Source: Bryobacterales bacterium
Lineage (GTDB): Bacteria; Acidobacteriota; Terriglobia; Bryobacterales; Bryobacteraceae
NCBI GenBank assembly: GCA_963716685.1
Contig: CAVQTR010000003.1
Coordinates: 3,225,500-3,289,499, forward strand
Length of the DNA stretch: 64,000 nucleotides
Reading direction: 5' to 3'
Shown here: piece by piece, positions 7,555-64,000 of the stretch
Layout of the letters: every line of letters starts with the position of its first letter
Position numbering within the stretch: position 1 is the first letter of the stretch
The notes under the pieces: generated by a model
What the model saw: only the letters and a program-made list of their open reading frames with translations
Told to the model about the DNA's origin: nothing
Databases searched by the model: none
Translations under genes and position numbers: made by a program

Positions 7555-7588
7555 AGAGAGCAGAAACAGGAGATAAAGTCTGCTTGGT

Positions 7589-7610
7589 ATTTGTAATTAA
7601 TATCACAAAT
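7589..7610. promoter_or_regulatory. inverted repeat ATTTGT-N10-ACAAAT in the AT-rich region immediately 5' of the GH43 gene (candidate operator)
   Basis: Sequence atttgtaattaatatcacaaat. The arms are perfect 6-bp reverse complements. It sits in a conspicuously AT-rich 110-bp intergenic region (7555-7666). Confidence 0.3.
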
Positions 7611-7666
7611 AACCGAGAAAAGTAAATAGAAATTGAGTCAATGAAAAACAAACAATTGCGTTCAGC

Positions 7667-8551: not shown

Positions 8552-8587
8552 AGTGATATGATCCTCGAACAAAGCCGCTGACCGCGA

Positions 8588-11855: not shown

Positions 11856-13450
11856 TTACCCGGGCAGCAGAGCCCGAATCGTCTCGATGGTATCCGCTTC
11901 CGTGGCCGGTTTATCGAGCCGCCATCGCGCCATCCGGGGAAAGCGCACCGCAATGCCCGACCGGTGCCGCGGACTCTTCTGGATGCCTTCAAACGCCAGC
12001 TCAAAAACCAACTCCGGCTTCACCGACCGCACCGGCCCGAACTTCTCGATCGTGTTTCGTCTGACGAACGCATCCACCTTGCGAATCTCTTCGTCGGTCA
12101 GCCCCGAATAGGCTTTGGCGAAGGGCACCAGCGTGTCGCCGTCCCACACCCCAAACGTGTAATCGGTGAACAGACTGGCGCGGCGTCCACTTCCTGGCTG
12201 CGCATAGAGCAACACCGCATCGATCGAGAACGGTTCGATCTTCCACTTCCACCAATCGCCGCGGCGGCGCCCCACACGATAAGGCGATCCGCGGCGCTTC
12301 AGCATGAACCCTTCCACCCGGCGCTCGCGCGACTGCGGCGCGCAACTCCATCAGGCGCTCCCAGGATTCCGCCTCCACCACCGGCGAGAGCACCAGCCGG
12401 CCGCTGTCGCGCATCGACTCCACCAGCCCGGCGAGTTTCCCGCGGCGCTCTTCAATGGGCTCCTCGCGAATGTCGCGGCCTTCCCACTCCAGCAGATCGT
12501 AAGCCAGAATCACCACGGGCACATCCGCCAGAATCTTCGGCCCCAGCACTTTGCGCCCGATGCGCCGCTGCATCTGCGCAAACGGCAGCGGCTGTCCAGC
12601 CACCCACGGCAGAATTTCGCCATCGATCACCGTGCCCTCGGGCAGCAGCGCACCCATAGCCTCCAGTTCCGGGAAAGCGCTCCGTCACCAGTTCCTCGCC
12701 GCGCGACCAGATGAACGTCCGCCAGTTCCGCCGGATCAGCTGCGATCGGATGCCATCCCATTTCCATTCGATCTGCCACTCCGCGATGTCGCCCAGCTGC
12801 GCGATCTCGCCTTCGATCGGATAAGCGAGGAAGAACGGATAGGGCCGGCTCACATCCGCATCTTCGGCTTCGCTTCGCGATCAGCTGGGCGTAAAACTCG
12901 GGCGAAGGATGCCAGTCGCCCATCAACCGGTGAGAAATCACCGGAGCCGCGATGCCGCTCACCTGCGCCAGAGCGCGCACCACCAGACTTTGCGACACCC
13001 CCACGCGAAACGCGCCGGTGATCAGCTTGTTCCAGACGAACCGCTGCGGCTCGTCCATCTCCCGCCATGCATTTACGAGTGAATCGCGGCGCAGATCGTC
13101 GTTCCACCTCGCCAGCGGAAGCAGCCGCTCTTCCACCCAGTAATGCAGCGGCAGATCGGTGGTCTTCTCCGCGTCCGGCAGCAGCAGGGCAATCGTCTCC
13201 GCCAGGTCGCCCACCGCCTGATAGCACTCATCGAACATCCACCCCGGCACCTGCGGATTCTTCGATGGCCCACTCCACCAGCTTGCGGGTTTCGATCAGC
13301 CGCTTCGGGCGCCGCCCAATCAGAAAATGAATGGCCCAGACGGCGTCCTCCGGAGGAGCCGCGCTGAAGTAGGCCGTCAGAGCGTCGGTCTTCAGATTGG
13401 TTTTGGTGGTCTCGTCGAGCGCGGTGTACAGGTCCGCAAAAAGCCTTCAT
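11856..13450 (-). pseudogene. ATP-dependent DNA ligase (LigC-type, ligase-associated DNA damage response), reading frame broken at least 4 times
   Basis: Fragments spread over several frames: ligase N-terminal region (MKAF.ADLYTALDETT...), adenylation motif I (EWKWDGIR), the adenylation/OB domains, and the C-terminal motif (EGFMLKRRGSPY..GRR.GDWWKWK). One break is at an A5 run at 13439-13443, where A4 is expected. Confidence 0.7.
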
Positions 13451-31179: not shown

Positions 31180-31254
31180 TGGAGCGGGAGACGAGAATCG
31201 AACTCGCAACCAACAGCTTGGAAGGCTGTGACTCTACCATTGAGTTACTCCCGC
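31180..31254 (-). tRNA. tRNA-Gly (anticodon TCC), 3' CCA encoded
   Basis: Minus-strand sequence: GCGGGAGTAACTCAATGGTAGAGTCACAGCCTTCCAAGCTGTTGGTTGCGAGTTCGATTCTCGTCTCCCGCTCCA. It has a 7-bp acceptor stem, an anticodon loop CTTCCAA and a T-loop GTTCGATTC. Confidence 0.8.
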
Positions 31255-31328
31255 GCCCGTCCCTATCCTACGAAAATCGAACCCTGGCGGTCAATTCAGC
31301 GTTATAGTCTTTAGGGAAACCAGCCGAC

Positions 31329-32326
31329 ATGAGCCTCCGAACCTTTCTGGGCAAGCAGTTTATCGATGTAATCGACTTTACCGAGCCGGAGGATGGCATC
31401 CTGGCCTACCGCTATCCGATGCAGGACCGCGAAATCCAGAACGGCGGCAAGCTCACCGTGCGCGATTCGCAAATGGCCGTCTTCGTCAACGAAGGCAAGA
31501 TCGCGGACGTGTTCGGCCCCGGTCTCTACACCCTGAACACCCAGACCCTGCCGATCCTTACCTACCTGATGAACTGGGACAAGGCGTTCCAATCGCCTTT
31601 CAAGAGCGACGTCTATTTCTTCTCGACGCGCATCCAGACCAACCAGCGCTGGGGCACCCCGAACCCGATCACCATCCGCGATAAGGATTTCGGCGTTATT
31701 CGCCTGCGCGGCTTCGGCATCTTCTCGTATCACGTCAGCGATCCCAAAACCTTCTACAGCAAGGTCAGCGGCACTCGCGATATCTATCATGTTGCCGATC
31801 TCGATGGCCAGCTCCGCAACACCATCGTCGGCCGCATGTCCGATTCGTTTGCCGCCAGCAACGTGCCGTTTCTTGACATGGCCGCCAATCAGATGATGCT
31901 GGGCAACAAAATCGCAGGATTCCTGAAACCGGTATTCGTCGATCTGGGCCTGACGCTCGATTCGTTCGTCGTCGAAAACCTCTCGCTGCCGGAAGAACTG
32001 CAGAAGATTCTCGATCAGCGCATCGGCATGAACATGCTGGGCGATATGAACCGGTACACCCAGTATCAGGTGGCCAACTCGCTCCCCATCGCGGCCGCTA
32101 ATGAAGGCGGACTGGCGGGGGCCGGAGCTGGCCTCGGCGCCGGTTTCGCCATGGCGCAGACGCTGGGCAACGCGCTGCGTCCCCAGCAGCCGCCGCCTGC
32201 TCCGGCTCCGGAAGCGTGCCGCTCCGGCCACTCCCTCCACCGAAACCAAGTTCTGCATCGACCTGCGGCAAGCCCATCCCGAAAGGCGCCAAATTCTGTC
32301 CGGAGTGCGGCGGTCCTCAGCAATAA
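31329..32326 (+). pseudogene. SPFH/band-7 family protein with C-terminal zinc ribbon (COG4260, virion-core-like); two frameshifts in the zinc-ribbon tail
   Basis: N-terminal SPFH domain (MSLRTFLGKQFIDVIDFTEPEDGILAYRYP...) and a Pro-rich linker. The zinc ribbon (T.TKFCIDCGKPIPKGAKFCPECGGPQQ*) is split across three frames within about 80 nt (32200-32326). The listed 447-aa ORF is a read-through chimera with the next gene. Confidence 0.65.
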
Positions 32327-32327
32327 C

Positions 32328-32672
32328 ATGTCCGGCTGCGAGTGGCTCATCGAAGCCCACGGTTGCAGCGCCGGCGTGCTGGCGGATGGCGAGGCGCTGC
32401 GCGAGCTCTTCGCCCAGGTCATCGCCGCCCTGGATCTGCACCCGGTGGCGGAAACCAAGTGGCACCAGTTCCCTGCTCCCGGCGGCATCACCGGCCTGTG
32501 CCTGCTTTCTGAAAGCCACCTGGCGTGCCACACCTTTCCGGAATTCGGCTCGCTGTGCCTCAATGTCTTCTGCTGCCGCGAGCGGCCCGACTGGGCGTTC
32601 GACGACTGCCTGCGTGCGCTCTTCGGCGCTACCCGCGTGATGGTGCGCAAAGTCGAGCGCCCCTATCAATGA
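32328..32672 (+). CDS. S-adenosylmethionine decarboxylase-like pyruvoyl-dependent proenzyme (SpeH/AdoMetDC family)
   Basis: ATG at 32328, two nt after the TAA of the zinc-ribbon frame. Contains LLSESHLACHTFPE, the ES|S self-cleavage site of bacterial AdoMetDC-type proenzymes. 114 aa. Confidence 0.7.
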   Translation: MSGCEWLIEAHGCSAGVLADGEALRELFAQVIAALDLHPVAETKWHQFPAPGGITGLCLLSESHLACHTFPEFGSLCLNVFCCRERPDWAFDDCLRALFGATRVMVRKVERPYQ

Positions 32673-34879: not shown

Positions 34880-36380
34880 TTGAACCTGCTTCTCTTCCTT
34901 TCCGTCCTCCTGATCGCCGCGTGCGGGCTGATCTATGAGCTGGTCGCCGGCACGCTCGCCAGCTATTTGCTGGGCGACAGCGTGCTTCAGTTTTCCACGG
35001 TCATCGGCAGCTACCTGTTCGCCATGGGCATCGGCAGTTGGCTCTCGCGCTTCCTGCACCGCGGCCTCGTGGCCCGCTTCGTCTCCGTCGAACTGATGGT
35101 CGGTCTGGTCGGCGGCTTCTCCTCTTCCCTGCTCTTCCTCGCCTTCGCGTGGACGCAGAGTTTCCGCCTGGTGCTGTATCTGGTCGTCGATCGCCATTGG
35201 AGTGCTGGTGGGCCTCGAAATCCCGCTGCTGATGCGCATCCTCAAAAACCGGCTGGAGTTCCGCGAACTCGTCGCGCAATGTCCTCACGTTCGATTACCT
35301 CGGCGCGCTGGGCGCCTCGCTGCTGTTTCCGCTGCTGCTTGTGCCGCACCTCGGTATGGTGCGGTCCGCGCTGCTGTTTCGGCATGGTGAACGCCGGCGT
35401 TGCGCTCTGGTCCACGTTTCTCTTCCGCCAGGAAATTCCACGCGTCGCGATGCTGCGCGCCGGCTGTATCGCCGTGCTGCTCGCCCTGGCCGGCGGCATG
35501 GCTCAGGCCGACTGGATTTCTTCAGCCGCCGACAATCAGCTCTTCGCCGATCAGGTGATCTTCTCCAAACAAACCCGATACCAGCGCATCGTCCTCACGC
35601 GTTGGAAAGATGATCTGCGCCTTTTCCTCAGTTCGCATCTGCAGTTCAGTTCACGCGATGAATATCGCTACCACGAGGCGCTGGTCCATCCCGGTTTGTC
35701 CGCCGTTCCCGCACGCGCGTCGCGTCCTCGTGCTGGGCGGCGGCGACGGCCTTGCCGTTCGCGAAATCCTAAAATACCGCGGCGTCGAAGCCATCACACT
35801 GGTCGATCTCGATCCGGAGATGACCAAGCTGTTCTCCACAAACGCGATGCTTACCGCTCTGAACCTGCATTCGCTTACGAACGCCCGCGTGCACGTCATC
35901 AACGCCGATGCCTTCGTCTGGCTCGACGAACATCCGGATATGTTCGATTTCGTGGTCGTCGATTTTCCCGATCCCACCAACTACTCGCTCGGCAAGCTCT
36001 ACACCACGGCTTTCTATCGGCTGCTCGGCAAGCATCTCAGCGCACGCGGCCTTGCGGTCGTCCAGAGCACGTCGCCCATGTTCGCGCGCCAGTCTTACTG
36101 GTGCATCGAAACAACCCTGCGGCAGGCCGGCCTGCGCACGTGGCCCTACCATGTCTACGTTCCCTCTTTCGGCGAGTGGGGTTACATGCTTGCCGGGAAC
36201 GGCGACTGGGAGCCGCCGGCGACCCTTCCCGCCAACCTGCGCTTCCTTTCCGCGCAGACTCTGCCCACCATGTTTCAGTTCCCGGCCGACATGCAACCGG
36301 TTCCCGCCGAAGCCAATCGCCTGAACGATCAGGTGCTGGTGCGATACTACGAGCGCGATTGGAATGACATCGCGCATTAG
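34880..36380 (+). pseudogene. spermidine synthase-like polyamine aminopropyltransferase with N-terminal multi-TM domain, frameshifted at least 3 times
   Basis: N-terminal TM domain (MNLLLFLSVLLIAACGLIYELVAGTLASYLLGDS...). The C-terminal SpeE fold (VLVLGGGDGLAVREILKY...VDLDPEMT...VVVDFPDP) lies in another frame, with two short intermediate frames between. Confidence 0.65.
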
Positions 36381-37848
36381 CCGCCGCGAAGTACTCAGCG
36401 CCGGTCTGGCCGGCCTGACTCGCAAGACCGACCGGCCCGTAGCCGGTTCCTTCGTGAATGACGACTTCGTCCGCGGCCATCAGCTGCGCGATCGCGCGCG
36501 CTTTTCCACGCCGTCGCGAACCGTCAAAGTGCCGGCAGTTATCGTCGGTGGCGGCATCGCCGGCCTCTCCGCCGCGTGGCGCTTCTCAAAACGCGGCTTT
36601 CACGATTACGTGCTCCTCGAAATGGAGAAGCAGCCTGGCGGCAACTCCCGCAGCGGCAGCAACGCGGTATCCGCTTACCCGTGGGGCGCGCATTACGTTC
36701 CCGTACCCAGCCACAAATCCGCCCTCGTTCGCGAACTGTTCGCAGAGCTCGGCCTGGTTCGCGACGGCGTCTGGGATGAGCGCCAGCTCTGCTTCTCGCC
36801 GCAGGAGCGGCTGTTCCTCAACGGACAGTGGCAGGAAGACATCGAGCCGCACGACGGCCTGAGCGCGCGCGACCGCGACCAGATGAAACGCTTCGGCGAA
36901 CGGATGCGCGCCTTCCACGCCACCGGAAAGTTCACCATTCCCATGGCGGAAGGTGCGAGCCCCTCCGAGCTGGATTCGCTCAACATGACCGAATGGCTGC
37001 GGCGCGAGCGCTTCGATTCGCCCTACCTGCACTGGTATGTCAACTACGCCTGCCGCGACGATTACGGCGCGCTCGCCCGCGACACCTCGGCGTGGGCCGG
37101 CATCCACTACTTCGCCGCGCGCGAGGCCGACGACAAAGGTCCGCTCACCTGGCCGGAAGGTAACGGCTTTCTGGTGAAGCAGCTGCTCGAGCGCGTTGCG
37201 TCTCATGTTCGCACAGACGCCATGGTGCATCGCATCCGTCAGGACGGCGCGTTCTGGCGGGTAGCCGCCGCCGACACGGAATATCTGACTCGCACCGTGA
37301 TCTTCGCCGCGCCCACGTTTCTTGCTCCTTACGTGATCGACCCCGCGCCGCTGGTGCCGGAGCGCGAATATTCGCCGTGGATGACAGCCAATCTCACGCT
37401 CGACCGCCTGCCCAAAGAAGGCGGCGCCGAACTCGCCTGGGACAACGTGATTTACGATTCGCCGGCGCTTGGCTACGTTGTCGCCACCCATCAATCGCTG
37501 CGCACGCAGGAAGAGCGCTCCGTCTGGACTTATTACTGGTCGCTCGCCGAAGGTTCACCCGCTCAGAATCGCAGACTGCTGATCGAGAAGGACTGGGCTT
37601 ACTGGCGCGATTCCATCCTCAACGATCTGGCACGCGCCCATCCCGATATCCGGCAGTGCGTTTCGCGCATCGACGTCATGCGTTTTGGCCACGCCATGGC
37701 GCGGCCCACGCCGGGATTTCTTAGCATGCGCGCGCCGGTCGCCCCGCGGCTTCACTTCGCCAACTCCGATCTCAGCGGGTTCTCTATCTTCGAAGAGGCG
37801 CAGTACCGCGGCGTGACGGCAGCCGACCAGGCACTTCGCGATCTCTGA
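36364..37848 (+). CDS. FAD-dependent amine-oxidase-like oxidoreductase with Tat signal
   Basis: SRREVLSAGLAGL Tat motif and a Rossmann FAD motif (VIVGGGIAGLSAAWRF), with an amine-oxidase-like fold. 494 aa, intact. It overlaps the SpeE-like gene by 17 nt. Confidence 0.75.
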   Translation: MTSRISRREVLSAGLAGLTRKTDRPVAGSFVNDDFVRGHQLRDRARFSTPSRTVKVPAVIVGGGIAGLSAAWRFSKRGFHDYVLLEMEKQPGGNSRSGSNAVSAYPWGAHYVPVPSHKSALVRELFAELGLVRDGVWDERQLCFSPQERLFLNGQWQEDIEPHDGLSARDRDQMKRFGERMRAFHATGKFTIPMAEGASPSELDSLNMTEWLRRERFDSPYLHWYVNYACRDDYGALARDTSAWAGIHYFAAREADDKGPLTWPEGNGFLVKQLLERVASHVRTDAMVHRIRQDGAFWRVAAADTEYLTRTVIFAAPTFLAPYVIDPAPLVPEREYSPWMTANLTLDRLPKEGGAELAWDNVIYDSPALGYVVATHQSLRTQEERSVWTYYWSLAEGSPAQNRRLLIEKDWAYWRDSILNDLARAHPDIRQCVSRIDVMRFGHAMARPTPGFLSMRAPVAPRLHFANSDLSGFSIFEEAQYRGVTAADQALRDL

Positions 37849-40074: not shown

Positions 40075-40985
40075 GTGGCGAACGGGCTGCTCGGCATCGA
40101 ACACCTGGAGCGCGCGGAAATCGAAGCCATTCTGAAGCGGGCCAGGGATTTCCAGCCCGCGCAGAACGAACCCTTCCAACGTTTCGAAACGTCTGCGCGG
40201 CAAAATGATCGTGAACCTGTTTTTCGAGGCCTCCACTCGCACGCGGACCAGCTTTGAAATTGCCGCGAAGCGGCTGGGCGCGGAAGCACTTTCCATCACG
40301 GCCAGCGGTTCCAGTGTTTCGAAAGGCGAATCTCTGGTGGACACGCTGAACACCCTTGCCGCCATGCGGCCGCAGGCAATCGTGATGCGACATTCCGCCT
40401 CCGGAGCCCCTCAGTTTCTCGCTCGCTACCTGCCGATTCCCATCATCAACGCCGGGGACGGAACGCATGAGCATCCCACGCAGGCTTTGCTGGACGCGCG
40501 AACCATTTTGGATCGGCGCGAGTCGCTGGAAGGGCTGCGCGTCGCGATCATCGGCGACATTGCGCACAGCCGCGTAGCTCGCTCGAACGTGCATCTGCTC
40601 TCGAAGTTTGGCGCCAACATCGTGCTGTGCGGACCGGCCAATCTGCTGCCGCGCGAACTGGCCGCAGCTGGCGCCGGGCGTCACCCTGACCAACGACATT
40701 CAGGAAGCCATTCAGGACGCCGACGTGGTGATGATGCTGCGCGTGCAGCTGGAGCGTCAGCATGAAATCCCCATGTCCGCGGGCGAATACTTCCAGTTCT
40801 TCGGCCTGCGTCTGGAACATCTGGCTCTCGCCAAACCCGATGCCATCGTGATGCATCCGGGGCCGATCAACCGCGGCCGCGAGCTTTCAAGCGAAGTGGC
40901 AGACAGCCAGCGTTCGGTGATCTTAAACCAGGTAGAGAATGGAATCGCGGTGCGCATGGCAGTGCTCGAGCGGGTGGTGGGATGA
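40075..40985 (+). pseudogene. pyrB: aspartate carbamoyltransferase catalytic subunit, two frameshifts
   Basis: Pieces at 40075-40257, 40205-40765 ([15 protein letters not shown], the carbamoyl-phosphate binding STRTR motif) and 40608-40985 (HPGPINRG). Confidence 0.8.
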
Positions 40986-42275
40986 AGACTCTGCACATCC
41001 GGAACGGCCGGGTGATCGATCCCGCTTCGCAGTTTGATGGCGTGACCGACATCTGGATTGTCGAGGGGAAGATCAGCCGTGAGCGGCCGTCCGGCGACGG
41101 CTGGGATGTGTTCGATGCCGCGGGCATGGTGGTGGCGCCAGGCTTCATCGATATGCACGTGCACCTGCGGGAGCCCGGGCTCGAGCATGCGGAGACCATC
41201 GAAAGCGGTTCGCGCGCGGCGGCAGCGGGCGGCTTTACCACCATTTGCTGCATGCCCAACACCAAGCCGGTGAATGACAGCGCCACCGTGACGAGTTACA
41301 TCATCGAGCGCGCGCGACGAGCCGCCGTGGTGAATGTGCTGCCCATCGGCGCGATCACCAAGGGCAGCGCCGGCGAGGAACTGGCGGCGATCGGATCGAT
41401 GAAGAAGGCCGGCATTGTGGCGATTTCCGACGATGGCCGCCCGGTGATGAACTCGCGCGTGATGCGCCGCGCCATGGAGTTTGCGCGCTCGCTCGATCTG
41501 CCGGTGATTGATCATTGCGAGGATCTGAATCTGAGCGCGGGCGGCGATATGCACGAAGGCGTGGTCTCGACGCGTCTGGGCCTGCGCGGGATTCCGTCGA
41601 GTTCCGAAGACGTGATGGTGGCGCGCGATATTCTGCTGGCCGATGCCACCGGCGCGCGTTTTCATGTGGCTCATATTTCCACCCGTCATTCCGTTGCCAT
41701 GGTGGCGTTTGCAAAAAGCAAAGGCCTGCCCGTCACCTGTGAAACCACGCCGCACCATTTCGCGCTGACCGATGCCGGGGTCGCCGCTTACGACAGCAAC
41801 TACAAAATGAAGCCGCCGCTGCGCTGCGATCATGACGTGGACGCGGTCATCGAGGGCATTGTTTCGGGCGCCATCGACGTGATTGCCACTGACCATGCGC
41901 CCCATGCCGGCAGCGAGAAGATGCAGGAGTTCGAGCGCTGCCCGTTCGGGATTACCGGCCTTGAAACAGCCATCGGTCTAACCACTGGAACGGCTGGTGC
42001 ATACCGGCAAAATCTCCCTCCCACGCATGGTGGAACTGTTCACCACCGGTCCGGCGCGGGTGCTGCGGCTCGACCGGGGAACCCTGGCGCACGGCGCGCC
42101 GGGAGATGTGACCATCTTCGATCCGGAGCTGGCGTGGACCTACGACGTCAATCGTTCATTCTCGAAGAGCCGGAACTCGCCGTTCGACGGACACCGATTT
42201 CGCGGGGGCCCGGTGGCTGCGATCGTCAATGGAGCGATCGTCTGGTCCCGTCAGAACCCGGGAACTTTGGCGTAA
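40982..42275 (+). pseudogene. pyrC: dihydroorotase, one frameshift near 42000
   Basis: Metal-binding motifs ([10 protein letters not shown], ...HVAHIST.., ATDHAPH) in 40982-42000. The C-terminal part ([20 protein letters not shown]...) is in another frame (41997-42275). Confidence 0.8.
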
Positions 42276-42340
42276 ACGGCTGACAACGGCAAGGTGCCCG
42301 GGATGCTCGCTGGCTGACAGACGCCATCGGGCATAGCTGT

Positions 42341-44713
42341 TTAGTTCATCAACAGTGCCATCATCGCACCGGCAATCTCTTTGCCGCGCTCGCCCACTTC
42401 GCCAATGGGGCCCACGCATGACGGGCAGCCGGTCTCGCACGGGCAGTTCGATACCAGCTCCCGCGTGCGCCGCACCAGCTCTTCGCCCATGCGGAACAGC
42501 GGTGCGCTTTGGCCCACTCCGCCGGGATAGCTGTCGTACAGGTACAGATTCGGCTCCCAGTTCGCCACCGAGCCTTCCGCGTTCTCCGTAACGGCGAGGC
42601 CCAGATCGCGCGGATCGCACATCAGCAGCAGCGACGCGACGGTGCGCAGCGCATTGCCCAGGCCCGTCAGACCGTTCTGTTTTTCCACCGGCTGTAAAGG
42701 GCAAGCTGTGCCAGAAACGCCGCCGGGAAATGCAGCCAGAAAGACGTGGTGTGCATTTCCTGTTCCGGCATGGAGAGCTTCCCGGCCCCCACGTTTTCCA
42801 GCGTGTAAAACTTGATCTTCTTGAACCCGACAATCTGCCGGTTTACGCGCACGTCGCCGTGCGCCTTTTCCGCCTGCCCGGCCGGCGCCGCTTCGAACTC
42901 GCGCAGCACTTTCACCTGCGTGTAATCGATCGCGTCGGTATAGTAGTCGCAATCCACGCGCCTCACATAGGCTTTGCGCTCCTTGTAATCGAAATGCTCC
43001 ACATGGAACTGCTTCGCCTCATGCAGATAAATCGCTTTCTCATGCAGCGTGGTGAGCGCCGTGGTGAAGCAGACGTCCGCGATGACTTTCGGCTCACCCG
43101 TGATATCGACCACCACGAAGTTATCGCTGGACACGGCGCGCAGCGAGACGGCATCGGCCGGATACGTGTCCGAAGTCCAGTGCCAGTTATCGCCGGACTG
43201 GTGCAGAAAGCCCGATTCGGCCAGGAACACGACAAAGTTCACGAGTGTCGTGACGGCCGAACTGTTCGCCGTCGCGCAGCGGCAGTTCGAACGCCGCGCA
43301 CTTCAGATGATTGAGCAGGATTTCCAGGTTATCCGCATTCACCTGCGCATGCTCGGGCGAGCTGCCGAAGAAGTATTCCGGATGCTCGACGATGTACTGA
43401 TCGAGCGGCGCGCTGGAGGCAACCAGAACCGCGGCGGAAGGCGTCTGGCGGCGTCCCGCGCGACCGGCCCGCTGCCAGGTGGAAGCGATGGTTCCGGGAT
43501 AGCCGGCCATCACCACCGCATCGAGCGAGCCAATGTCGATACCCAGTTCCAGCGCATTGGTGGCAACCACGGCGCGGATATCGCCAGCGCGCAGACGGCG
43601 TTCGATCTCCCGGCGTTCGCGCGGCAGGTAGCCGCCGCGATAGCCGCGCACCGTTTCGGTGGGGATGCGGCCGTTGTCGCAGGCGTCCTTGAGATAGGTC
43701 ACCAGCACTTCCATGGCGAGTCGGTTGTTGGCGAAGACCAGCGTCTGCTGTTCGCGGTCGATGAACTCAAGCGCGATGCGGCGGGTCTCATTGATGTAAC
43801 TGCGCCGGATGCCCAGCTGGCGGTTGACCACCGGCGGATTGTAGAAGACGAAATACTTCTCGCCGGACGGCGCGCCGCTGCGATCCACCATTTCAAAGGG
43901 CGCGCCGGTCAGCGTTTGCGCCAGTTCGCGCGGGTTCGCAATGGTGGCCGAACAGCAGATGAACACCGGCTTCGATTGGTAGAACTCGCAAATGCGCGCC
44001 AGACGCCGCAGCACATTCGCCATGTGGCTGCCGTAAACGCCGCGGTAGTAGTGCAGCTCATCGATGACGATGTACTGCAGGTTCTCGAACAGCTTCGCCC
44101 ATTTGGTGTGGTGCGGCAGAATGCCGCTGTGCAGCATGTCCGGATTCGTGAACACCACGTTGGCGCGCTGGCGAATGGCTCGTCGCGCATCCTGCGGCGT
44201 GTCGCCGTCGTACGTGAAGGCGCGAATGTCCGAGCCCATTTCCTCCACGATTTCGTGGAACTCATGCAGCTGATCTTCGGCCAGCGCCTTGGTGGGAAAC
44301 AGGTACATGGCGCGCGCGCCGGGATCGCGCATCAGCAGATCGAGCACCGGCAGGTTGTAGCAAAGCGTTTTACCGCTGGCGGTGGGCGTGACGATCACCA
44401 GATTCCTGCCCGCGGTGACCACCTCGAACGATTCGGCCTGATGGCTGTACAGCCGTTCGATGCCGCGGGCCTTCAGGACATCGCGCAGCGCTGGCTGGAT
44501 GCTTTCGGGCACGGGCGCGAACGAACCCTCGCTCGCGGGCCGGTGATGGATGGCGCGTACGGGACCTTCGGGCTGCGCGGCCAGCGCCTCAAATTTGGAA
44601 ATGACCGCGGCCAGATTCGGGCTGAGCGCGCGCTGCAGCTGGTTCGCCATCGCGGGCGTGAAGTCCGGTTCCTGGAAGAGGGATGGCTGCGGCGCGCCGG
44701 GGGAAAGCTCCAT
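42341..44713 (-). pseudogene. DEAD/DEAH-box helicase with C-terminal DUF1998 four-Cys domain (MrfA/YprA-like DNA repair helicase), frameshifted at least 2 times
   Basis: Walker A (TPTASGKT), DEAH-like box (IVIDELHYY) and helicase C domains in 43187-44713. The DUF1998 region, with CPCETGCPSCV, is in ORFs 42667-43242 and 42341-42952. Confidence 0.7.
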
Positions 44714-45030
44714 TACTCGGGTTTGGGCCGGACGAACTTGTGCTTATCGATGGTGGCGGTTACCAGAAACGGCATCTCGGCATCGCCTGGGACGGCTTCG
44801 ATGCGCAGCACTTTTCCGGTGCAGTGAATGCGCACCGGCATTTCGCCATCGGCAAGAGTAATCTCGTATTCGATTTTGCCGCCGAGTTTCACTTCTTTGG
44901 CCGAGGGAAAAGAAACGCCGCCGGAACTGACATTAGCGGTTTTGGTGGTACGCGAAACGCGTTTGCCACCCAGAACCGAGATCTGGACCGGAAGGTTGAT
45001 CTCGAAGCGATGCGACTGCCGCTTGTTCAA
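44713..45030 (-). CDS. PilZ domain protein
   Basis: TTG start at 45030 preceded by AGGAGGG. RQSHRF (RxxxR) ... NVSSGG (DxSxxG-like). 105 aa. Stop/start overlap with the helicase gene (TAATG). Confidence 0.55.
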   Translation of the reverse strand: MNKRQSHRFEINLPVQISVLGGKRVSRTTKTANVSSGGVSFPSAKEVKLGGKIEYEITLADGEMPVRIHCTGKVLRIEAVPGDAEMPFLVTATIDKHKFVRPKPE

Positions 45031-45041
45031 ATTGGTCCCTC

Positions 45042-46037
45042 CTATGCGACCGAGGCGTGCGCGGCCACTCCGCGAACGATACCGGCCAGCACGGTTTCGG
45101 GCGTCTGCCCATCGGCATGCGCGTCGAAATTCAGAATCACGCGATGACGCAGGACGGCGGCGGCAACGCTGCGCACATCTTCCACGCTCAGGTGGAATCG
45201 TCCCCGCATCAACGCTACCACGCGGCCGCATTCCACCAGCGCCTGCGCGCCGCGCGGAGAGCTGCCGTAGCGAATGTATTTCCGGGCAAGTTCGGGCGCA
45301 TCCTTCTCGCCGGGCTGAGTGGCCATCACCAGCTCGATAGCGAAATCCTGAACATGCGGGGCAACCAGAACCTCGCGGCAGACCGAGCGGACTTCGAGGA
45401 TGGATTCGGCATCCAGCGCGGGGTTCACATGCGCTTCCTCGCGGGCAATGGTGCGCTCCACAATTCGGCCCAGTTCGGCACGCGACGGATACGTCACAAG
45501 AATCTTCATCAGGAAGCGATCCAGCTGCGCTTCGGGCAGCGGATACGTCCCTTCCATTTCGATGGGGTTCTGCGTCGCCATCACCAGAAACGGAGCCTCC
45601 AGCTGATGGGTGGTGGTGCCGCTGGTGACAGTGCGCTCCTGCATGGCTTCCAGCAGCGCGGATTGCGTCTTCGGCGTGGCGCGATTGATTTCATCCGCCA
45701 GCACCAGGTTGGCGAAAATGGGGCCGGGCTGGAAGCGCAGCACCTTGGAGCCGTGCTCGTCGTTCTCCATGATCATGCTGCCCACGATATCGGCGGGCAT
45801 CAGATCCGGCGTGAACTGGATGCGGGAATACTTCAACTGCAGAGCGCGGGCAAGGGTTCGCAGCAGCGTGGTCTTGCCGAGGCCGGGAACTCCCTCGAGC
45901 AGGACGTGACCGGAAGCGATCAGGCAGACCAGGACGCCCTCCACCACGTCGTCCTGCCCCACAATTACCTTGGCTATCTCGCTTCGTACCTGATTAAGTC
46001 GGGAAACCGCCTGCTGCAGGGATGCTTCGCTCGCCAC
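45042..46037 (-). CDS. MoxR family AAA+ ATPase
   Basis: Walker A (GVPGLGKT), Walker B (LLADEINRA), sensor 1/2 regions. 331 aa, the typical MoxR length. Confidence 0.85.
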   Translation of the reverse strand: MASEASLQQAVSRLNQVRSEIAKVIVGQDDVVEGVLVCLIASGHVLLEGVPGLGKTTLLRTLARALQLKYSRIQFTPDLMPADIVGSMIMENDEHGSKVLRFQPGPIFANLVLADEINRATPKTQSALLEAMQERTVTSGTTTHQLEAPFLVMATQNPIEMEGTYPLPEAQLDRFLMKILVTYPSRAELGRIVERTIAREEAHVNPALDAESILEVRSVCREVLVAPHVQDFAIELVMATQPGEKDAPELARKYIRYGSSPRGAQALVECGRVVALMRGRFHLSVEDVRSVAAAVLRHRVILNFDAHADGQTPETVLAGIVRGVAAHASVA

Positions 46038-46064
46038 TTCGACATTGTACTGTATTGCGTTCTG

Positions 46065-47612
46065 CTATTCGGTTCGCATGACCCGTTTCATCTGGTTGAC
46101 CAGCTGTGCCGCAGTGTACGGCTTCTGCAGGAAGCCGGCGACGCCTTCACCGAAGCGCCGCCGCGTGGCAGTCTCGTCGTAACCGCTGGACGCGACGACG
46201 GGAATGCCGGGACGAATCTGGACGATCTGCCGGAATGCCTCTTCGCCGTTCATCACCGGCATCGCCATATCGAGCAGGACGACGGCGATGCGGTCGGACT
46301 GCTGGCGGAAGAACTCCACGCCTTCGAGTCCGTTCCTGGCCAGCAGCACCGTAAAGCCGTGGCGTTCGAGAGCCATCCTGGCGGTGCGCCGAATGGTGTC
46401 CTCGTCATCGACAACCAGCACCAGACCTTTGCCGCTCTGTGCAGCGGCGGGCGCAGCCGGGCGATGATCGTCAACTTCGGACGGCGGAAAGAAGACGCGG
46501 AAGACCGTTCCGGCAAGCGGCTGACTTTGCAGCTGAATGGCGCCTTTGTGTCCGCGCACAATGCCGAGCACGGCGGCAAGGCCCAGGCCGCGACCGGCGA
46601 ATTTGGTAGTGAAGAAGGGGTCGAAGACGCGCGCCTGCGTCGCCGGGTCCATGCCGTGACCGTTATCGCGGACTTCGAGGACCACGTAGTCGCCGGAACC
46701 CAGCTCGCGGCCTTCCACATCCGGAACGTGACGGTCGCGCAGGTGCGCAAGACGGGTGCTGAGCGTCACGGAGCCGCCTTCGGCGCTGCAGGCTTCGGCG
46801 GCGTTCATCACCAGATTCAGGATGAGCTGCCGCAGCTGCGCGGAATCGGCTTCCACGGGCGGCAGATCGTCGCAGAGCTCCAGAACCAGCGCCACGTTGT
46901 TCGGTACCGTAGCCTGCAGCAGCGGCAGCAGTTCCTTGACACGGCGCGAGAGCGCGACGGGCTCCACGACGAGGCGGCCGCGTCCGGAATAAGCCAGCAT
47001 CTGACGCGTGAGCTGCGCGGCGGTTTCGGCGGCCAGCATGACGCTGCGGACGCACTCGCGGTTTTCCTCGCTGAGCTGTTCATCTTCCAGGACGAGCGAG
47101 GAATGGCCCAAAATTCCGGTCAGCAGGTTGTTGAAGTCGTGGGCAATGCCGCCGGCCAGAAGGCCCATGCTTTCGAGCTTCTGGCGGTTACGGGCGAGTT
47201 CGTCGGCCATGCGGCGCGCGGTGATATCCTGCGCAACGCCGACAAAGCGCGACGGATCGAGAACGCGGCCGCGCGCCGAGATCCAGCGCGGGTTTTCGTC
47301 GGGACAGACGATGCGGAACTCGCCATCGAACTCCGCGGCGTAGTCGAGCGACGCAGCGAGCATACCGGCAACGCGCTCGCGATCTTCCGGCGCAATGCGG
47401 GCCAGCCACACATCGAGATCGAACGCATCGTCAGGCATTCCGAACAGGGAGCGGAAGCGCGGCGAGGCGGTGACGGTGCGCGACGGAATTTCGACATGCC
47501 ACAGCGCGAGATCCGCGGCGTCGATGGCATCGGCGGGCGTCAGACCTGAACTGTTGAGAGCCGACACTGTTCCCATTTTAGGGTGAACCGCCGCCAGCAC
47601 AATGAGGCCCAA
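46065..47612 (-). CDS. hybrid sensor histidine kinase/response regulator (PAS, HisKA, HATPase_c, REC)
   Basis: H-box (GIAHDFNNLL), N/G boxes (LVMNAAEA, DNGHGM, GRGLGLAAV), and a C-terminal receiver (LVVDDEDTIR ... DMAMPVMNG). No TM segments, so probably cytoplasmic. Confidence 0.8.
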   Translation of the reverse strand: MGLIVLAAVHPKMGTVSALNSSGLTPADAIDAADLALWHVEIPSRTVTASPRFRSLFGMPDDAFDLDVWLARIAPEDRERVAGMLAASLDYAAEFDGEFRIVCPDENPRWISARGRVLDPSRFVGVAQDITARRMADELARNRQKLESMGLLAGGIAHDFNNLLTGILGHSSLVLEDEQLSEENRECVRSVMLAAETAAQLTRQMLAYSGRGRLVVEPVALSRRVKELLPLLQATVPNNVALVLELCDDLPPVEADSAQLRQLILNLVMNAAEACSAEGGSVTLSTRLAHLRDRHVPDVEGRELGSGDYVVLEVRDNGHGMDPATQARVFDPFFTTKFAGRGLGLAAVLGIVRGHKGAIQLQSQPLAGTVFRVFFPPSEVDDHRPAAPAAAQSGKGLVLVVDDEDTIRRTARMALERHGFTVLLARNGLEGVEFFRQQSDRIAVVLLDMAMPVMNGEEAFRQIVQIRPGIPVVASSGYDETATRRRFGEGVAGFLQKPYTAAQLVNQMKRVMRTE

Positions 47613-47631
47613 AGATATACTGGCAGCTGGT

Positions 47632-48975
47632 ATGAAGAAACTCTTGCTCCTGCTGAGTCTGGCAGCGGCCGGCGCGCAGGCGGCGGATGTGACGATCCCG
47701 ATCGATAAGTATAAACTGCCAAACGGGATGCGCGTGATTCTGTCGAAGGATAACGCCGTTCCGGTGGTTGCGGTCTACGTGATGTACAACGTGGGCTCGC
47801 GATCGGAGGAAAAAGGCCGCACGGGCTTCGCGCATCTGTTCGAGCACATGATGTTCGAGGGATCGGCGAATGCGCCGAAGGGCATGCACTCGAAGCTGAT
47901 TACGTCCAACGGCGGCGCGGACAACGGCTCGACGCATCCGGATTACACGGATTACTTCGAGACGCTGCCATCGAACAAGCTGGCGGTTGGGCTTTGGCTG
48001 GAATCGGACCGCATGCGCAGCCTGGCGATTACGGCGGAGAACCTGACGAACCAGAAGGAAGCGGTGAAGCAGGAGCGGCGGCTTTCCTTCGATAACCGTC
48101 CGTATGCCACGGCGATTGTGGACAAGTGGCCGGCACTGGCGTACAGCAACTGGCAGAGCTCGCATTCGCTGATCGGGTCGTTCGAGGATCTGAACGCGGC
48201 GTCGCTCGATGACGTGTCGAAGTTCTTCCGGACTTACTACGCGCCGAACAATGCCGTGCTGGTGATTGCCGGGGACTTTCAGACCGCCGCGGCGAAGAAG
48301 CTGGTGAGCGACTACTTCGGGGACATTCCGGCGCAGGCGGCGGCGAAGCGTCCGGACATGACGGAGATGACGCGGACGGAAGGCCGAACCGAGAAGTACA
48401 GCGACAAGCTGGCGCAGGTTCCCGGCGTGGTGGTGGGATTTCCGGGACCGGCGCGGCGCTCGCCGGATTACTATGCGCTGGGCATGCTGGACGTGCTGCT
48501 GACGGGCGGCGAGAGCTCGCGGCTGCAGCTGGATCTGGTGAAGGGAAAGCAATCGGTGGTGCAGTTCGAGGCGAATCCGGGCTGGCCGTTTGCGGACTTG
48601 TCGGACTATCGCGATCCGGGCGTTTACGCGTTCTTCCTGCTCTACAAGCCGAACTTCCAGGCGAGCGAGATTGTGGGACAGCTGCAGGATGAGATTGCGC
48701 GGGTGCAGAAAGACGGCGTGGAGACGAAGGAACTGGAGCGCATGCGGACATTCTTCCGGGCGCAGCGAATTACCAGTCTGCAGAGCGCGCTGACGCGGGC
48801 GCAGCTGCTGGCGAAGTACCAGACGCTGGACGACAAACCGGAATGGATCAACCTGGAAATGGACCGGTTTCTGGCGGTGACGCCGGCGGAGATTCAGGCA
48901 GTGGCGAAGAAGTACCTGACGGCGCAGAAGCGGGACGTGCTGGAGATTCAGCCGGTTGGCGAGGAGAAGAAATGA
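47632..48975 (+). CDS. M16 family zinc peptidase (pitrilysin-like), active-type subunit
   Basis: Signal peptide MKKLLLLLSLAAAGAQA. Inverted zinc motif HLFEHMMFEG (HxxEH). Confidence 0.85.
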   Translation: MKKLLLLLSLAAAGAQAADVTIPIDKYKLPNGMRVILSKDNAVPVVAVYVMYNVGSRSEEKGRTGFAHLFEHMMFEGSANAPKGMHSKLITSNGGADNGSTHPDYTDYFETLPSNKLAVGLWLESDRMRSLAITAENLTNQKEAVKQERRLSFDNRPYATAIVDKWPALAYSNWQSSHSLIGSFEDLNAASLDDVSKFFRTYYAPNNAVLVIAGDFQTAAAKKLVSDYFGDIPAQAAAKRPDMTEMTRTEGRTEKYSDKLAQVPGVVVGFPGPARRSPDYYALGMLDVLLTGGESSRLQLDLVKGKQSVVQFEANPGWPFADLSDYRDPGVYAFFLLYKPNFQASEIVGQLQDEIARVQKDGVETKELERMRTFFRAQRITSLQSALTRAQLLAKYQTLDDKPEWINLEMDRFLAVTPAEIQAVAKKYLTAQKRDVLEIQPVGEEKK

Positions 48976-50366
48976 GAAGCGCGGTGATCACGATCCTGCT
49001 GAGCGCGGGCGCGCTGGCGCAGACGTTCGACCGGACGAAGCCGCCGCAGACGCCGCCGATTCCGGCGTACAAGCTGCCGCCGGTTTACGAGACGAAGCTG
49101 GCAAACGGATTGGCCGTGGTGCTGGTGGACGACGCGCGCTTTCCGCTGGTGACCGTGCGGCTGGCGATTCAGGCGGGCGCGAAGTTCGATCCGGCGAATT
49201 TGCCGGGCGCATCGGACGCGGTTGCGGCCCTGCTGACGCAGGGAACGAAGACGCGCACATCGCGCCAGATTGCGGAGCAGCTGGCGGAGATGGGCGGCTC
49301 GCTGAACGGGCAATCCACGGCGGACTCACTGATGCTGGCGGGCAGCGCGCTGGCGGAGAATGCGCCGCGGCTGCTCGCGCTGCTGGGCGATGTGGTGCTG
49401 AACGCGAGCTTCCCTGAAAGCGAAGTCGCGCTGCAGATGCAGAATCGCAGGCAGGTGCTCATGGCGGAGCGTTCCGAGGCCAGCTTCCTGATGAACGAGA
49501 AGTTCCGCTCGGTGGTATTCGGCAGCCATCCGTACGCGCACGCAGGACCGACGCTGGCGTCGCTCGATCATCTGGATCGAAAGGCGCTGATGGCGTTTCG
49601 GGATTCGTATGTGACGCCGAACCGAGCGTCGCTGATTGTGCTGGGACGCCTGCCGGCGCGGGCGCAGATGATGAAGACGATTCAGGAGCAGCTCGGTGCA
49701 TGGGCGGCGAATACGGCTCCGGCATATTCGCCGGCGGCGCCGCCGGCGCCGAAGAGACAGATCGTGCTGGTGGATCGGCCGGGCTCGGCGCAGGCGGATA
49801 TCCGAGTCGGGCGGCTTACATCGACGTATGGGTCGCCGGATTTCTTCCCGCTTACAGTGGCTTCGGCGATTCTGGGCGGGAGCGCGGATTCGCGGCTGTT
49901 CAACGATATCCGCGAGAAGCGCGGTTACGCTTATGACGTGCATACCGAACCGAGCCGCAGCCAGGAAGCAGGCACGTTCGCGGCAGTAACGCAGGTGCGC
50001 AACGATGTGGTGGAACCGGCGATGCAGGCGCTGCTGGACGACATGGCGCAGATGGGCAGCGAGCGCGTGGGCGCGGAGGAACTGAGCGCCAACAAGAATT
50101 ACCTGAGCGGCCGATACCTATTAAGGATGGAGATGCAGTCCGGCCTTGCCGAGCAGCTGGCGACGGTGAAAGTAATGGGGCTGCCGAACGACTACATCGA
50201 GACGTATACAACACATGTGCGGTCGACGGAGCCGGATCAGATCGAGGCGGCGGCGAAGAAGTACATTGTGCCGGGCGATTCGGCGATCGTGGTGGTAGGC
50301 GACGCGGCGAAGATCCAGAAGGCGCTGGAGAAGTTCGGCACGGTGACGCTGGCAAAGCCGGAATAG
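48972..50366 (+). CDS. M16 family peptidase, second (non-catalytic-type) subunit
   Basis: ATGA overlap with the preceding M16 gene. Signal peptide MRSAVITILLSAGALAQ. M16 fold without HxxEH. Confidence 0.75.
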   Translation: MRSAVITILLSAGALAQTFDRTKPPQTPPIPAYKLPPVYETKLANGLAVVLVDDARFPLVTVRLAIQAGAKFDPANLPGASDAVAALLTQGTKTRTSRQIAEQLAEMGGSLNGQSTADSLMLAGSALAENAPRLLALLGDVVLNASFPESEVALQMQNRRQVLMAERSEASFLMNEKFRSVVFGSHPYAHAGPTLASLDHLDRKALMAFRDSYVTPNRASLIVLGRLPARAQMMKTIQEQLGAWAANTAPAYSPAAPPAPKRQIVLVDRPGSAQADIRVGRLTSTYGSPDFFPLTVASAILGGSADSRLFNDIREKRGYAYDVHTEPSRSQEAGTFAAVTQVRNDVVEPAMQALLDDMAQMGSERVGAEELSANKNYLSGRYLLRMEMQSGLAEQLATVKVMGLPNDYIETYTTHVRSTEPDQIEAAAKKYIVPGDSAIVVVGDAAKIQKALEKFGTVTLAKPE

Positions 50367-62666: not shown

Positions 62667-62882
62667 AAATACATCGTATCACGACATATCTACTGGCAGA
62701 GCCGGCCGCCATCCATCGGGACCTCTGCGTGAGGCGGCAACCTGGTGGACGGCAGTACACCGCGGATCGGATTTCGAGGTTTCGGATGACCGTGTCTACG
62801 TTGAACCAGTCCGCACCGTAATTACAACGCCTACCGGGCCACCTTTGACTGATATTCTGTAGCTCCAAGCTAATGTCCCGGT

Positions 62883-64000
62883 ATGCCCGCTGCTGACTAC
62901 GACCTTTTCCTGAGTCATGCGTGGGCGGATGGGGACCGCCCAGGGCAGATCGCCGATGCGCTAAGGACGGCTGGGCTCCGGGTGTGGTTCGACGCGAACG
63001 AGATCAACGACTTCGACAGCATAACTCGCGCCGTCAACACCGGCCTCGCGAAGGCTAAGGCCCTGCTGGCCTACTTTTCCAAAACCTACCCCACCAGGCG
63101 CGCGTGCCAGTGGGAACTTACGGCCGCCTTCCTCGCCGGGCAAGCCGAGGGCGACCCTCGACGCAGGGTGTTGGTAATCAACCCGGAAACGACTTCCGCC
63201 CACATCCATCCCGTTCAGCTCCGCGACGCGAAGTTCCGCCCGGTGCCCAGGGACGATGCCGATCTCAGGGAATTGGTGCAGGCCGTCGTCAGCCACCTGG
63301 AGGGACTCGAGGGGCCGTTGGCCAACATCCAATCCGTGTCCGCCCCCCAGTGGCACCCTTTGAGCCCGGCGGGTTCCACCCGCTTCGTAGGCCGCATCGA
63401 GAAAATGTGGGAGCTGCACTCCGTGCTGAGTGCCGGCGACGTGGCGCAAGTTACCGGTGCCGCCGCTGCCACCGGAGGCATCGGGCAGGTTCACGGACTC
63501 GCCGGCGTGGGCAAGTCGCTCCTCGCCGAAGAGTACGCCTTGCGTTTCGGCTCGGCTTACCCCGGCGGCATCTTTTGGCTCCGAGCGTATGGTAACGACG
63601 CCACCTCGGCCGCCGGCGATGAAGCGCGCGAGGCACAGCGTGCGGCCCAGGTACGGCAGATTGCGGAAAGGGTCATACCTGCGGAAAGGCTCGGACTTCC
63701 CATTCACGCGCTGACGACAGACCAGATTGAAGGAGCGCTCGGCCGCGAGTTGGCGAAAAGGGAAAAGCGCTGCCTTTGGGTGGTCGACGACGTCCCGGAT
63801 GGCCTCGAACCTCAGGCCCTCCGCCGCTGGTTAGCGCCCGACACCATCGCCCGCACGCTCATAACGACCCGCAGTCGCGCGTACGGCACTCTCGCGCGGC
63901 CGGTGGACCTCTCCGTTCTGCACCCCGATGAGGCCTTCCAACTGCTCACTTCACGGCGGCCCCCGGCTAACAACCAAGAAGAAGATGCGGCACGCGCACT
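62883..64000 (+). CDS. TIR domain / NB-ARC (STAND NTPase) protein, N-terminal 372 aa only; gene continues beyond the window end (absent from the supplied ORF list because no stop is reached)
   Basis: ATG at 62883 after an in-frame TAA at 62871. TIR motifs DYDLFLSHAWADG ... RVWFD ... RACQWELTAAF. P-loop GLAGVGKSLLAEEYA. Walker B CLWVVDDV. LITTRSRAY is the hhhTTR/RNBS-B motif of NB-ARC. Confidence 0.75.
   Translation, partial: MPAADYDLFLSHAWADGDRPGQIADALRTAGLRVWFDANEINDFDSITRAVNTGLAKAKALLAYFSKTYPTRRACQWELTAAFLAGQAEGDPRRRVLVINPETTSAHIHPVQLRDAKFRPVPRDDADLRELVQAVVSHLEGLEGPLANIQSVSAPQWHPLSPAGSTRFVGRIEKMWELHSVLSAGDVAQVTGAAAATGGIGQVHGLAGVGKSLLAEEYALRFGSAYPGGIFWLRAYGNDATSAAGDEAREAQRAAQVRQIAERVIPAERLGLPIHALTTDQIEGALGRELAKREKRCLWVVDDVPDGLEPQALRRWLAPDTIARTLITTRSRAYGTLARPVDLSVLHPDEAFQLLTSRRPPANNQEEDAARA

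Follow-up and report, generated by a model that had tools for sequence, protein, structure and literature searches.

A Hybrid Kinase–MoxR–PilZ Gene Series Ahead of an MrfA-Type Helicase in Bryobacterales: Comparative Gene Order and a Probable Lineage-Specific Joining of Two Gene Units

Introduction

MoxR ATPases of the Bat type (Bacteroides aerotolerance, MRP subfamily) head operons in which the moxR gene is followed by genes for DUF58, BatA/B (VWA) and TPR proteins, and one such operon, in Riemerella, is regulated by the two-component system PhoPR (PMC11834572). MoxR-class AAA+ ATPases are thought to work by means of an adaptor that delivers the substrate (PMC9976466, PMC13036017). Adaptors are also known among the single-domain PilZ proteins, which act on partners such as CheR1, in the case of MapZ, or the receiver (REC) domain of SagS, in the case of HapZ (bioRxiv 10.1101/2020.02.11.943704). 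A third described system of interest here is MrfA/YprA of Bacillus subtilis, a mitomycin repair helicase (structure 6ZNP; PMC7797055). We have analyzed a stretch of DNA in which relatives of MoxR, PilZ and MrfA proteins are encoded side by side: 64,000 nucleotides (nt) of contig CAVQTR010000003.1 from assembly GCA_963716685.1 (Bryobacterales bacterium), hereafter the window, to whose positions the coordinates refer. On its minus strand, between 42341 and 47612, genes for a hybrid histidine kinase, a MoxR ATPase, a stand-alone PilZ protein and an MrfA/YprA-type helicase follow one another head to tail, with domains assigned by Pfam. Homologous loci that were retrieved from other genomes for comparison are given L-numbers (L010, L082, etc.).

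The MoxR protein of the window shares with the Bat-type operons the domain pair AAA_3 and AAA_lid_2, and it is 73–84% identical to the ATPases that head them. Unlike these, it is not encoded by the first gene of its series, but between the kinase and PilZ genes, with no DUF58, BatA or VWA gene in the window. RavA and NorQ, the partners of ViaA and NorD, belong to the MoxR class as well, but the window locus has no adaptor gene of their kind, and its ATPase falls in the AAA_3/MRP group, being neither a RavA nor a NorQ (26.7 bits against the NCBIfam RavA model, for a cutoff of 681). The PilZ protein resembles the known single-domain adaptors in its core of about 105 amino acids (aa), its RxxxR and (D/N)xSxxG motifs and its short C-terminal tail. 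It differs from them in its candidate partner, which would be the DNA repair helicase or, less likely, the MoxR ATPase or the REC domain of the kinase, none of them described as a PilZ target in the literature searched. As for the helicase, domain order and four-cysteine zinc cluster are those of B. subtilis MrfA, and the lack of a fused nuclease is a trait that it shares with the "YprA only" branch described by Bell et al. 2025 (PMC12458937). Unlike MrfA, it has a PilZ gene directly upstream, a pairing not described in the literature searched, and its copy in the window carries two frameshifts. All four proteins belong to well-known families, and therefore the locus does not represent a new kind of machine.

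Gene Order and Proposed Origin of the Cluster

We think it fairly probable that the cluster is a lineage-specific fusion, in which a PilZ-helicase module was joined to a kinase-MoxR unit, and that the PilZ protein serves as an adaptor of the helicase for cyclic diguanosine monophosphate (c-di-GMP). The first of the two units would consist of the stand-alone PilZ gene directly upstream of the MrfA/YprA-type helicase, with a small open reading frame (ORF) ahead of them in most relatives. The second would be a hybrid kinase together with a Bat-type MoxR that has parted from DUF58, BatA and VWA. The replacement of the small ORF, and of the region upstream of it, by the second unit would have taken place in the ancestor shared by the window and its sister locus L082. 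The four genes are probably read as one transcript, and in the window lineage the PilZ-helicase pair may now be transcribed from the kinase promoter; a promoter and terminator scan of the 42–48 kb region gave no excess over shuffled sequence. By analogy with the known adaptors, the PilZ protein would bind c-di-GMP and act on the helicase or on its repair pathway, while MoxR would either work with partners encoded elsewhere or be a co-transcribed passenger.

An earlier note on this DNA had described a kinase, a MoxR ATPase, a PilZ protein and an MrfA-like helicase in tight series, and Pfam bears out all four, on the minus strand. The junctions are short: 27 nt, and not the 28 nt given in that note, separate the kinase stop codon from the GTG of MoxR; 11 nt, as the note had it, lie between the MoxR stop codon and the TTG of PilZ; and at the PilZ/helicase junction (−1 nt) stop and start share one base (TAATG), which is the overlap that had been proposed.

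The same order of four genes was found again only in L082/L083, with the same pyrC-pyrB-pyrR-hom genes downstream. Between the window and L082 the identity is 93% for MoxR, 77% for PilZ, about 90% for the helicase and 68% for the kinase. The synonymous divergence (dS) is about 0.85 or more, and ratios of nonsynonymous to synonymous divergence (dN/dS) of 0.05–0.20, with 0.05 for MoxR, indicate purifying selection on all four genes. The gap between MoxR and PilZ is 11 nt in the window and 7 nt in L082. Conservation of the order in relatives, to which the earlier note had tied its proposal, is therefore found in the sister L082/L083 and in none of the other orthologous-PilZ loci.

The relatives of the PilZ gene were gathered as 45 clusters at 62–78% identity; a scan of metagenomes with the PilZ alignment returned 11 loci, mostly short. 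In every orthologous-PilZ locus with enough flank (62–78% identical), PilZ lies directly upstream of the helicase, namely in the window, L082/L083, L084, L085/L086, L087, L088, L089–L095 and L098–L101. In some 15 further lineages with the orthologous PilZ, neither the kinase nor MoxR stands beside it. The outer neighbors of the pair vary in at least seven ways (atp operon, DUF3738, YfdI_N, sigma-54 activator, LpxB, GFO_IDH, epimerase, pyrC, etc.). The trio of small ORF, PilZ and helicase has stayed intact and co-directional while both flanks were reshuffled at least seven times, a pattern typical of operons that are kept by selection. Two look-ups started with helicase proteins provided L102 and L103, and in L103 the helicase is paired with a diverged PilZ protein (38% identical, hhalign 99.2%) whose RxxxR motif was recovered after correction of the start. 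Thus, the PilZ-helicase pairing is constant within the PilZ subfamily of the window and patchy outside it.

The small ORF of about 50 aa is conserved before PilZ in 12 loci (Table 1) and is absent only at the kinase-MoxR loci. It follows the pattern W-SS-RR..IAVRI.Y...GC.IY...VEEL, ends 15–42 nt before PilZ in the five loci measured, and has no match in Pfam, NCBIfam or PADLOC. Its profile finds nothing in the window, L082, L102–L104 or L010; since it is blank in the window and in L082, the kinase-MoxR unit occupies its place there.

Two boxes recur by eye about 60–110 nt before the small ORF, one GGTGACAGAAAT-like and the other ACTTAGC-like, about 45 nt apart. They are present in L084, L087, L089, L090, L092 and L098–L100, and might serve the trio as a common promoter or operator.

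The PilZ Protein

The PilZ gene starts with TTG and has an AGGAGG Shine-Dalgarno sequence 7 nt before it, which reaches into the final base of the MoxR stop codon; a strong ribosome-binding site of its own had rightly been ascribed to it. The protein scores 34.8 bits against PF07238, above the gathering score of 22.5, and its relatives are likewise annotated as PF07238, so the PilZ call that the earlier note had left to profile searches stands. The motif spacing, which that note had regarded as only approximate, is in fact exact and canonical, with RQSHR at residues 4–8 (RxxxR) and NVSSGG at residues 33–38 (NxSxxG). In an alignment of 28 relatives G38 never varies and R4, R8 and N33 vary rarely or not at all, Ser35 being replaced by Gly in three sequences; both motifs are near-invariant across the two PilZ subfamilies. 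The AlphaFold2 model is all-beta and of moderate confidence, with a mean pLDDT of 72. Its best Foldseek matches in the PDB are the PilZ domains of Alg44, MrkH and MotI (c-di-GMP-bound), with a probability of about 1.0, but weak E-values of 0.017–0.1 and TM-scores of 0.5–0.58, and sequence identity to solved PilZ domains is 15–21%. The 105-aa protein is thus predicted to be a c-di-GMP receptor or adaptor.

A profile search of a library of 1.84 billion proteins gave 1015 matches, none of which is a PilZ-helicase or PilZ-MoxR fusion. The best 150 of the 1015 are 70–343 aa long, and the single match of 343 aa has the PilZ domain only.

The MoxR ATPase

Pfam matches AAA_3 over its full profile (2.4e-63) and AAA_lid_2 (1.8e-16) in the MoxR protein, which is read from a GTG start and has intact Walker A (GVPGLGKT at 49) and Walker B (LADEINR at 113) motifs. 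The AAA_3/MoxR call of the earlier note holds, except that it was given the accession of AAA_5 (PF07728) in place of PF07726; both profiles match. Residues 3–337 of the L082 protein align to 45045–46049, and the codon that corresponds to the L082 start is ATA in the window.

A tblastn search of the 64-kb window with partner proteins from the same order (E 1e-3) gave no DUF58, BatA or VWA match, and Pfam did not detect these domains either in the main ORFs, of which about 50 more were scanned along the window. The earlier claim that these partners are missing is therefore correct, both just outside the gene set and anywhere in the window. In a scan of one genome per species, about 35 Bryobacterales loci have a MoxR that is 66–84% identical, and in other phyla the identity drops to less than 60%. 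Canonical operons of MoxR, DUF58, BatA and VWA/GATase1_like account for about 27 of the 35, and in none of these, which hold the closest orthologues, does the kinase-MoxR-PilZ order occur. The MoxR proteins of the window and L082 nest in a neighbor-joining tree inside the MoxR-DUF58-BatA-VWA clade, 79–84% identical to its members. By its place in the tree, therefore, the window protein is a Bat-type MoxR separated from its partners and does not form a separate subfamily.

A MoxR without DUF58 arose at least three times in the order, in window/L082, in L010/L015 and in L030–L032. In L010 such a Bat-type MoxR is followed after 155 nt by a PilZ gene of the sister subfamily, and the spacer holds a promoter-like TTGACC-N15-TATAGA. 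L015 has the same upstream cytochrome c gene and MoxR, with a CheB methylesterase gene on the opposite strand in place of PilZ. The upstream flanks of L010 and L015 match each other and that of L010 also matches the canonical L018, and therefore the partners were removed there from the ancestral locus. We rejected the idea of an old MoxR paralogue that serves PilZ specifically, as the window protein is 82–84% identical to canonical MoxR and 79% to that of L010; the occupation of the canonical locus by L010 and L015 also contradicts it. A 106-aa ORF after MoxR in L030 is not PilZ-like.

Other neighbors of MoxR relatives were also recorded. In L011 the canonical operon is followed by a 575-aa ORF, PolX-like by eye, and then by an M16 peptidase that is 73% identical to the M16 peptidase beside the window kinase. 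MoxR and the M16 gene lie less than 10 kb apart in both genomes, which hints that the window MoxR may be the original copy, locally rearranged. Kdp, PolX and the giant HAMP kinase, which stand beside MoxR or the kinase in relatives, are not in the window. In L030–L032 a conserved 492-aa protein without Pfam match ends at the start codon of the DUF58-less MoxR.

The Hybrid Kinase

The kinase combines PAS_3 (3e-13), HisKA (1e-8), HATPase_c (8e-21) and Response_reg (9e-20) domains, with the H-box AHDFNN and a receiver aspartate within LLDMAMP. The maximum of the hydrophobicity measure KD19 is 1.5, and because no stretch reaches transmembrane grade, the label "cytoplasmic" that had been given to the protein is fair. 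Its longest ORF begins at the TTG at 47612, which would bring it into overlap with the divergent M16 peptidase gene; the likelier start is therefore the ATG at 47576. The protein is 68–69% identical to residues 202–683 of the 694-aa REC-PAS-HK-REC kinase of L082 (dN/dS 0.20) and lacks the N-terminal REC domain of that orthologue. In L082 another kinase gene lies upstream of this one and overlaps it by 4 nt; its product, a giant hybrid kinase, exceeds 2200 aa and contains HAMP repeats together with GAF, HisKA and HATPase domains and two REC domains. The window kinase abuts M16 genes, and its upstream end is thus unlike that of L082. The L082 kinase pair suggests a multi-step phosphorelay, lost in the window copy.

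The Helicase

The helicase has DEAD, Helicase_C, WHD_HRQ1 and MZB/DUF1998 domains and a CxCx3CxxC cysteine cluster in its translation. The intact L082 orthologue (789 aa) matches B. subtilis YprA/MrfA (6ZNP) with an E-value of 1e-244, residues 61–770 against 30–734, so that the MrfA-like assignment of the earlier note applies over the full length. Close homologues number thousands in Bryobacteraceae and Solibacter. An MrfB-type DEDDh exonuclease is not encoded next to the helicase, the downstream gene being the convergent dihydroorotase gene pyrC, and there is none among the variable genes downstream of the helicase in the relatives.

DNA alignment to L082 locates indels of +1 nt near 43232 and +2 nt near 42702, and the three resulting pieces are all 86–90% identical to the L082 protein. 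Reading frames are also split elsewhere in the window: pyrB occupies two overlapping ORFs, pyrC loses its frame at the C-terminus, and the gene of an ATP-dependent DNA ligase is fragmented. As these genes are likewise broken, assembly error is the likelier cause, and the frameshifts probably reflect indel errors made in long-read assembly, not decay into pseudogenes.

Alternative Explanations

Several observations weigh against the proposed joining of two units with PilZ as helicase adaptor. The helicase occurs without PilZ in L102. In L104–L106, of the sister PilZ subfamily (the L103 type, 1395 clusters), the PilZ gene follows the atp operon and has no helicase, and neither L010, L096 nor L097 has a helicase beside PilZ; as the trio of L084 has atp genes upstream, the PilZ gene of L104 appears to occupy the same locus, with the helicase lost. 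The pair has not been found fused among the 1015 profile matches, and both c-di-GMP binding and a contact between PilZ and helicase are predicted from gene order and motifs. Moreover, the tight MoxR-PilZ junction kept across a dS of about 0.85 and the independent MoxR-PilZ adjacency of L010 could each point to a role for MoxR beyond that of a passenger. It is from these last two facts that a different explanation draws its strength, namely that kinase, MoxR and PilZ form a working cassette in which PilZ, depending on c-di-GMP, serves MoxR as adaptor or regulator and phosphorelay input comes from the kinase. The short gap is accompanied by a conserved order and purifying selection, and chance looks unlikely for a MoxR that, stripped of DUF58-BatA-VWA at the ancestral locus, independently comes to precede PilZ. 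PilZ proteins are also known to bind a hexameric ATPase, PilB, in Xanthomonas and Pseudomonas, and the pair HapZ-SagS offers a precedent for a PilZ adaptor on the REC domain of a hybrid kinase. We nevertheless consider such a cassette unlikely. Its order is absent in the roughly 15 lineages in which the orthologous PilZ keeps helicase and small ORF; the DUF58-less MoxR of L015, sister to L010, has no PilZ gene beside it; and in L010 itself the 155-nt distance and the promoter-like element stand between the two genes. Besides, the MoxR protein has not diverged from the canonical ones among which it nests (79–84% identical), no PilZ-MoxR fusion is among the 1015 matches, and no functional link between the two appears in the literature searched. 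Since the steady partner of PilZ is the helicase, and neither MoxR nor the kinase, the comparative data do not favor the MoxR wired to two-component and c-di-GMP signalling that the earlier note had envisaged, although the arrangement itself is real and unusual. The literature searched shows no functional link of PilZ to MrfA, DUF1998 or MoxR.

It is less probable still that the genes lack any functional coupling, being neighbors by rearrangement history only, with the PilZ-helicase adjacency a synteny inherited in a young clade. The separate occurrence of helicase (L102) and PilZ (L104–L106, L010) would fit this, as would the PilZ-helicase spacers of 43–131 nt in other loci, which are not tight; the orthologous PilZ subfamily falls into one cluster when grouped at 50% identity, which makes the clade a rather shallow one. 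Against mere inheritance, the trio has remained intact and co-directional through at least seven reshufflings of its flanks, and the pairing reaches as far as the 38%-identical PilZ of L103. Finally, YprA-family helicases are also part of anti-phage defence systems such as DISARM, Druantia and ARMADA, in which MoxR and PilZ could be accessory here. PADLOC gives matches of the helicase core to SngC, BrxHI, DruE and DrmA, and the window ends in a TIR_2 and NB-ARC gene. These matches are confined to the generic superfamily 2 core, however, and the full-length match is to MrfA (E 1e-244); the kinase, PilZ and the small ORF have no PADLOC match. No nuclease, methylase or DrmB/C-type partner is nearby, the neighbors being housekeeping genes (pyrBCD, M16 peptidases), and the helicase is widespread and highly conserved in the order, which fits the housekeeping "YprA only" branch (PMC12458937). 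With helicase-core matches only and no system-specific partner genes, DISARM, Druantia, ARMADA and Dpd were rejected, and we give hardly any credence to a defence role.

Significance

If PilZ acts on the helicase, there would be a direct route from c-di-GMP, a biofilm and lifestyle signal, to DNA repair. No description of a link between c-di-GMP and an MrfA-type helicase was found in the literature searched, the only related lead being a preprint of 2026 in which a diguanylate cyclase is connected with UvrA homologues. The MoxR side is of interest in its own right: a Bat-type MoxR has been stripped of its partners at least three times in one order, ending twice beside this PilZ family. Such a stripped MoxR provides a natural test of whether MoxR ATPases, thought to need VWA adaptors, can use other adaptors or act in trans. 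A bolder version would hold that a Bryobacterales PilZ family couples c-di-GMP to an MrfA-type helicase, and that the window lineage also recruited a Bat-type MoxR and a kinase, with the VWA-less MoxR working through the PilZ adaptor and L010 as a second instance. If true, this coupling and recruitment would link a phosphorelay, c-di-GMP and an AAA+ remodeller to DNA repair; in our opinion, it is quite improbable. Both the retention of PilZ with the helicase and the stripping of MoxR are leads drawn from gene order.

Feature Coordinates and Genomic Context

Table 1. Coordinates of the cluster, of its comparison loci and of other features, in window positions unless an L-number is given.
Feature	Position	Strand	Basis
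Hybrid histidine kinase	46065-47612	-	PAS_3, HisKA, HATPase_c, REC (Pfam)
Kinase-MoxR spacer, 27 nt	46038-46064	-	Sequence; open in MoxR frame
MoxR AAA+ ATPase, MRP/Bat type, 331 aa	45042-46037	-	AAA_3 + AAA_lid_2, Walker A/B
MoxR-PilZ spacer, 11 nt	45031-45041	-	Sequence
Stand-alone PilZ protein, 105 aa	44713-45030	-	PF07238, RxxxR + NxSxxG
Helicase part 1 (residues 1 to ~494: DEAD, Helicase_C, WHD start)	43232-44713	-	Pfam; 90% identity to L082 helicase
Helicase part 2 (~residues 493-671)	42700-43236	-	tblastn, 90% identity to L082; frame changed by +1 nt indel
Helicase part 3 (~residues 674-789, MZB/DUF1998)	42341-42702	-	MZB 2.4e-20; back in first frame after +2 nt indel
Interrupted helicase gene, whole region	42341-44713	-	
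Interrupted pyrB/pyrC	40205-40985, 40982-42283	+	
Interrupted ATP-dependent DNA ligase	11856-13295	-	
M16 peptidase beside the kinase	47602-50366		
Small ORF	L084 7803-7958, L085 7833-7985, L087, L089-L092, L094, L098-L101		
DUF58-less MoxR and PilZ	L010 1734-3181		
DUF58-less MoxR and CheB	L015 7236-8990		
Canonical MoxR operon, 575-aa ORF, M16 peptidase	L011 14341-16992		
492-aa protein and DUF58-less MoxR	L030-L032, about 6516-8993		
Giant hybrid kinase	L082 1-6906		
tRNA-Gly (TCC)	31180-31254	-	Rfam or ARAGORN
SPFH/Band_7 + S-adenosylmethionine decarboxylase ORF, spermidine synthase, amine oxidase	31308-32672, 35559-37848	+	
TIR_2 + NB-ARC (STAND-type) gene	62874-64000	+	

On the kinase side the cluster is flanked by two M16 peptidase genes, pyrD, a PDZ protein gene and an anti-sigma/ECF sigma pair, and on the helicase side by pyrC (convergent), pyrB, pyrR and the homoserine dehydrogenase gene. 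The tRNA-Gly gene is the only Rfam or ARAGORN match in the window. The TIR_2 and NB-ARC gene, which runs past the window end, may encode a defence or signalling NTPase. SPFH/Band_7 and S-adenosylmethionine decarboxylase domains match one stop-to-stop ORF, and a spermidine synthase and an amine oxidase are encoded close to it, which suggests a polyamine gene cluster.

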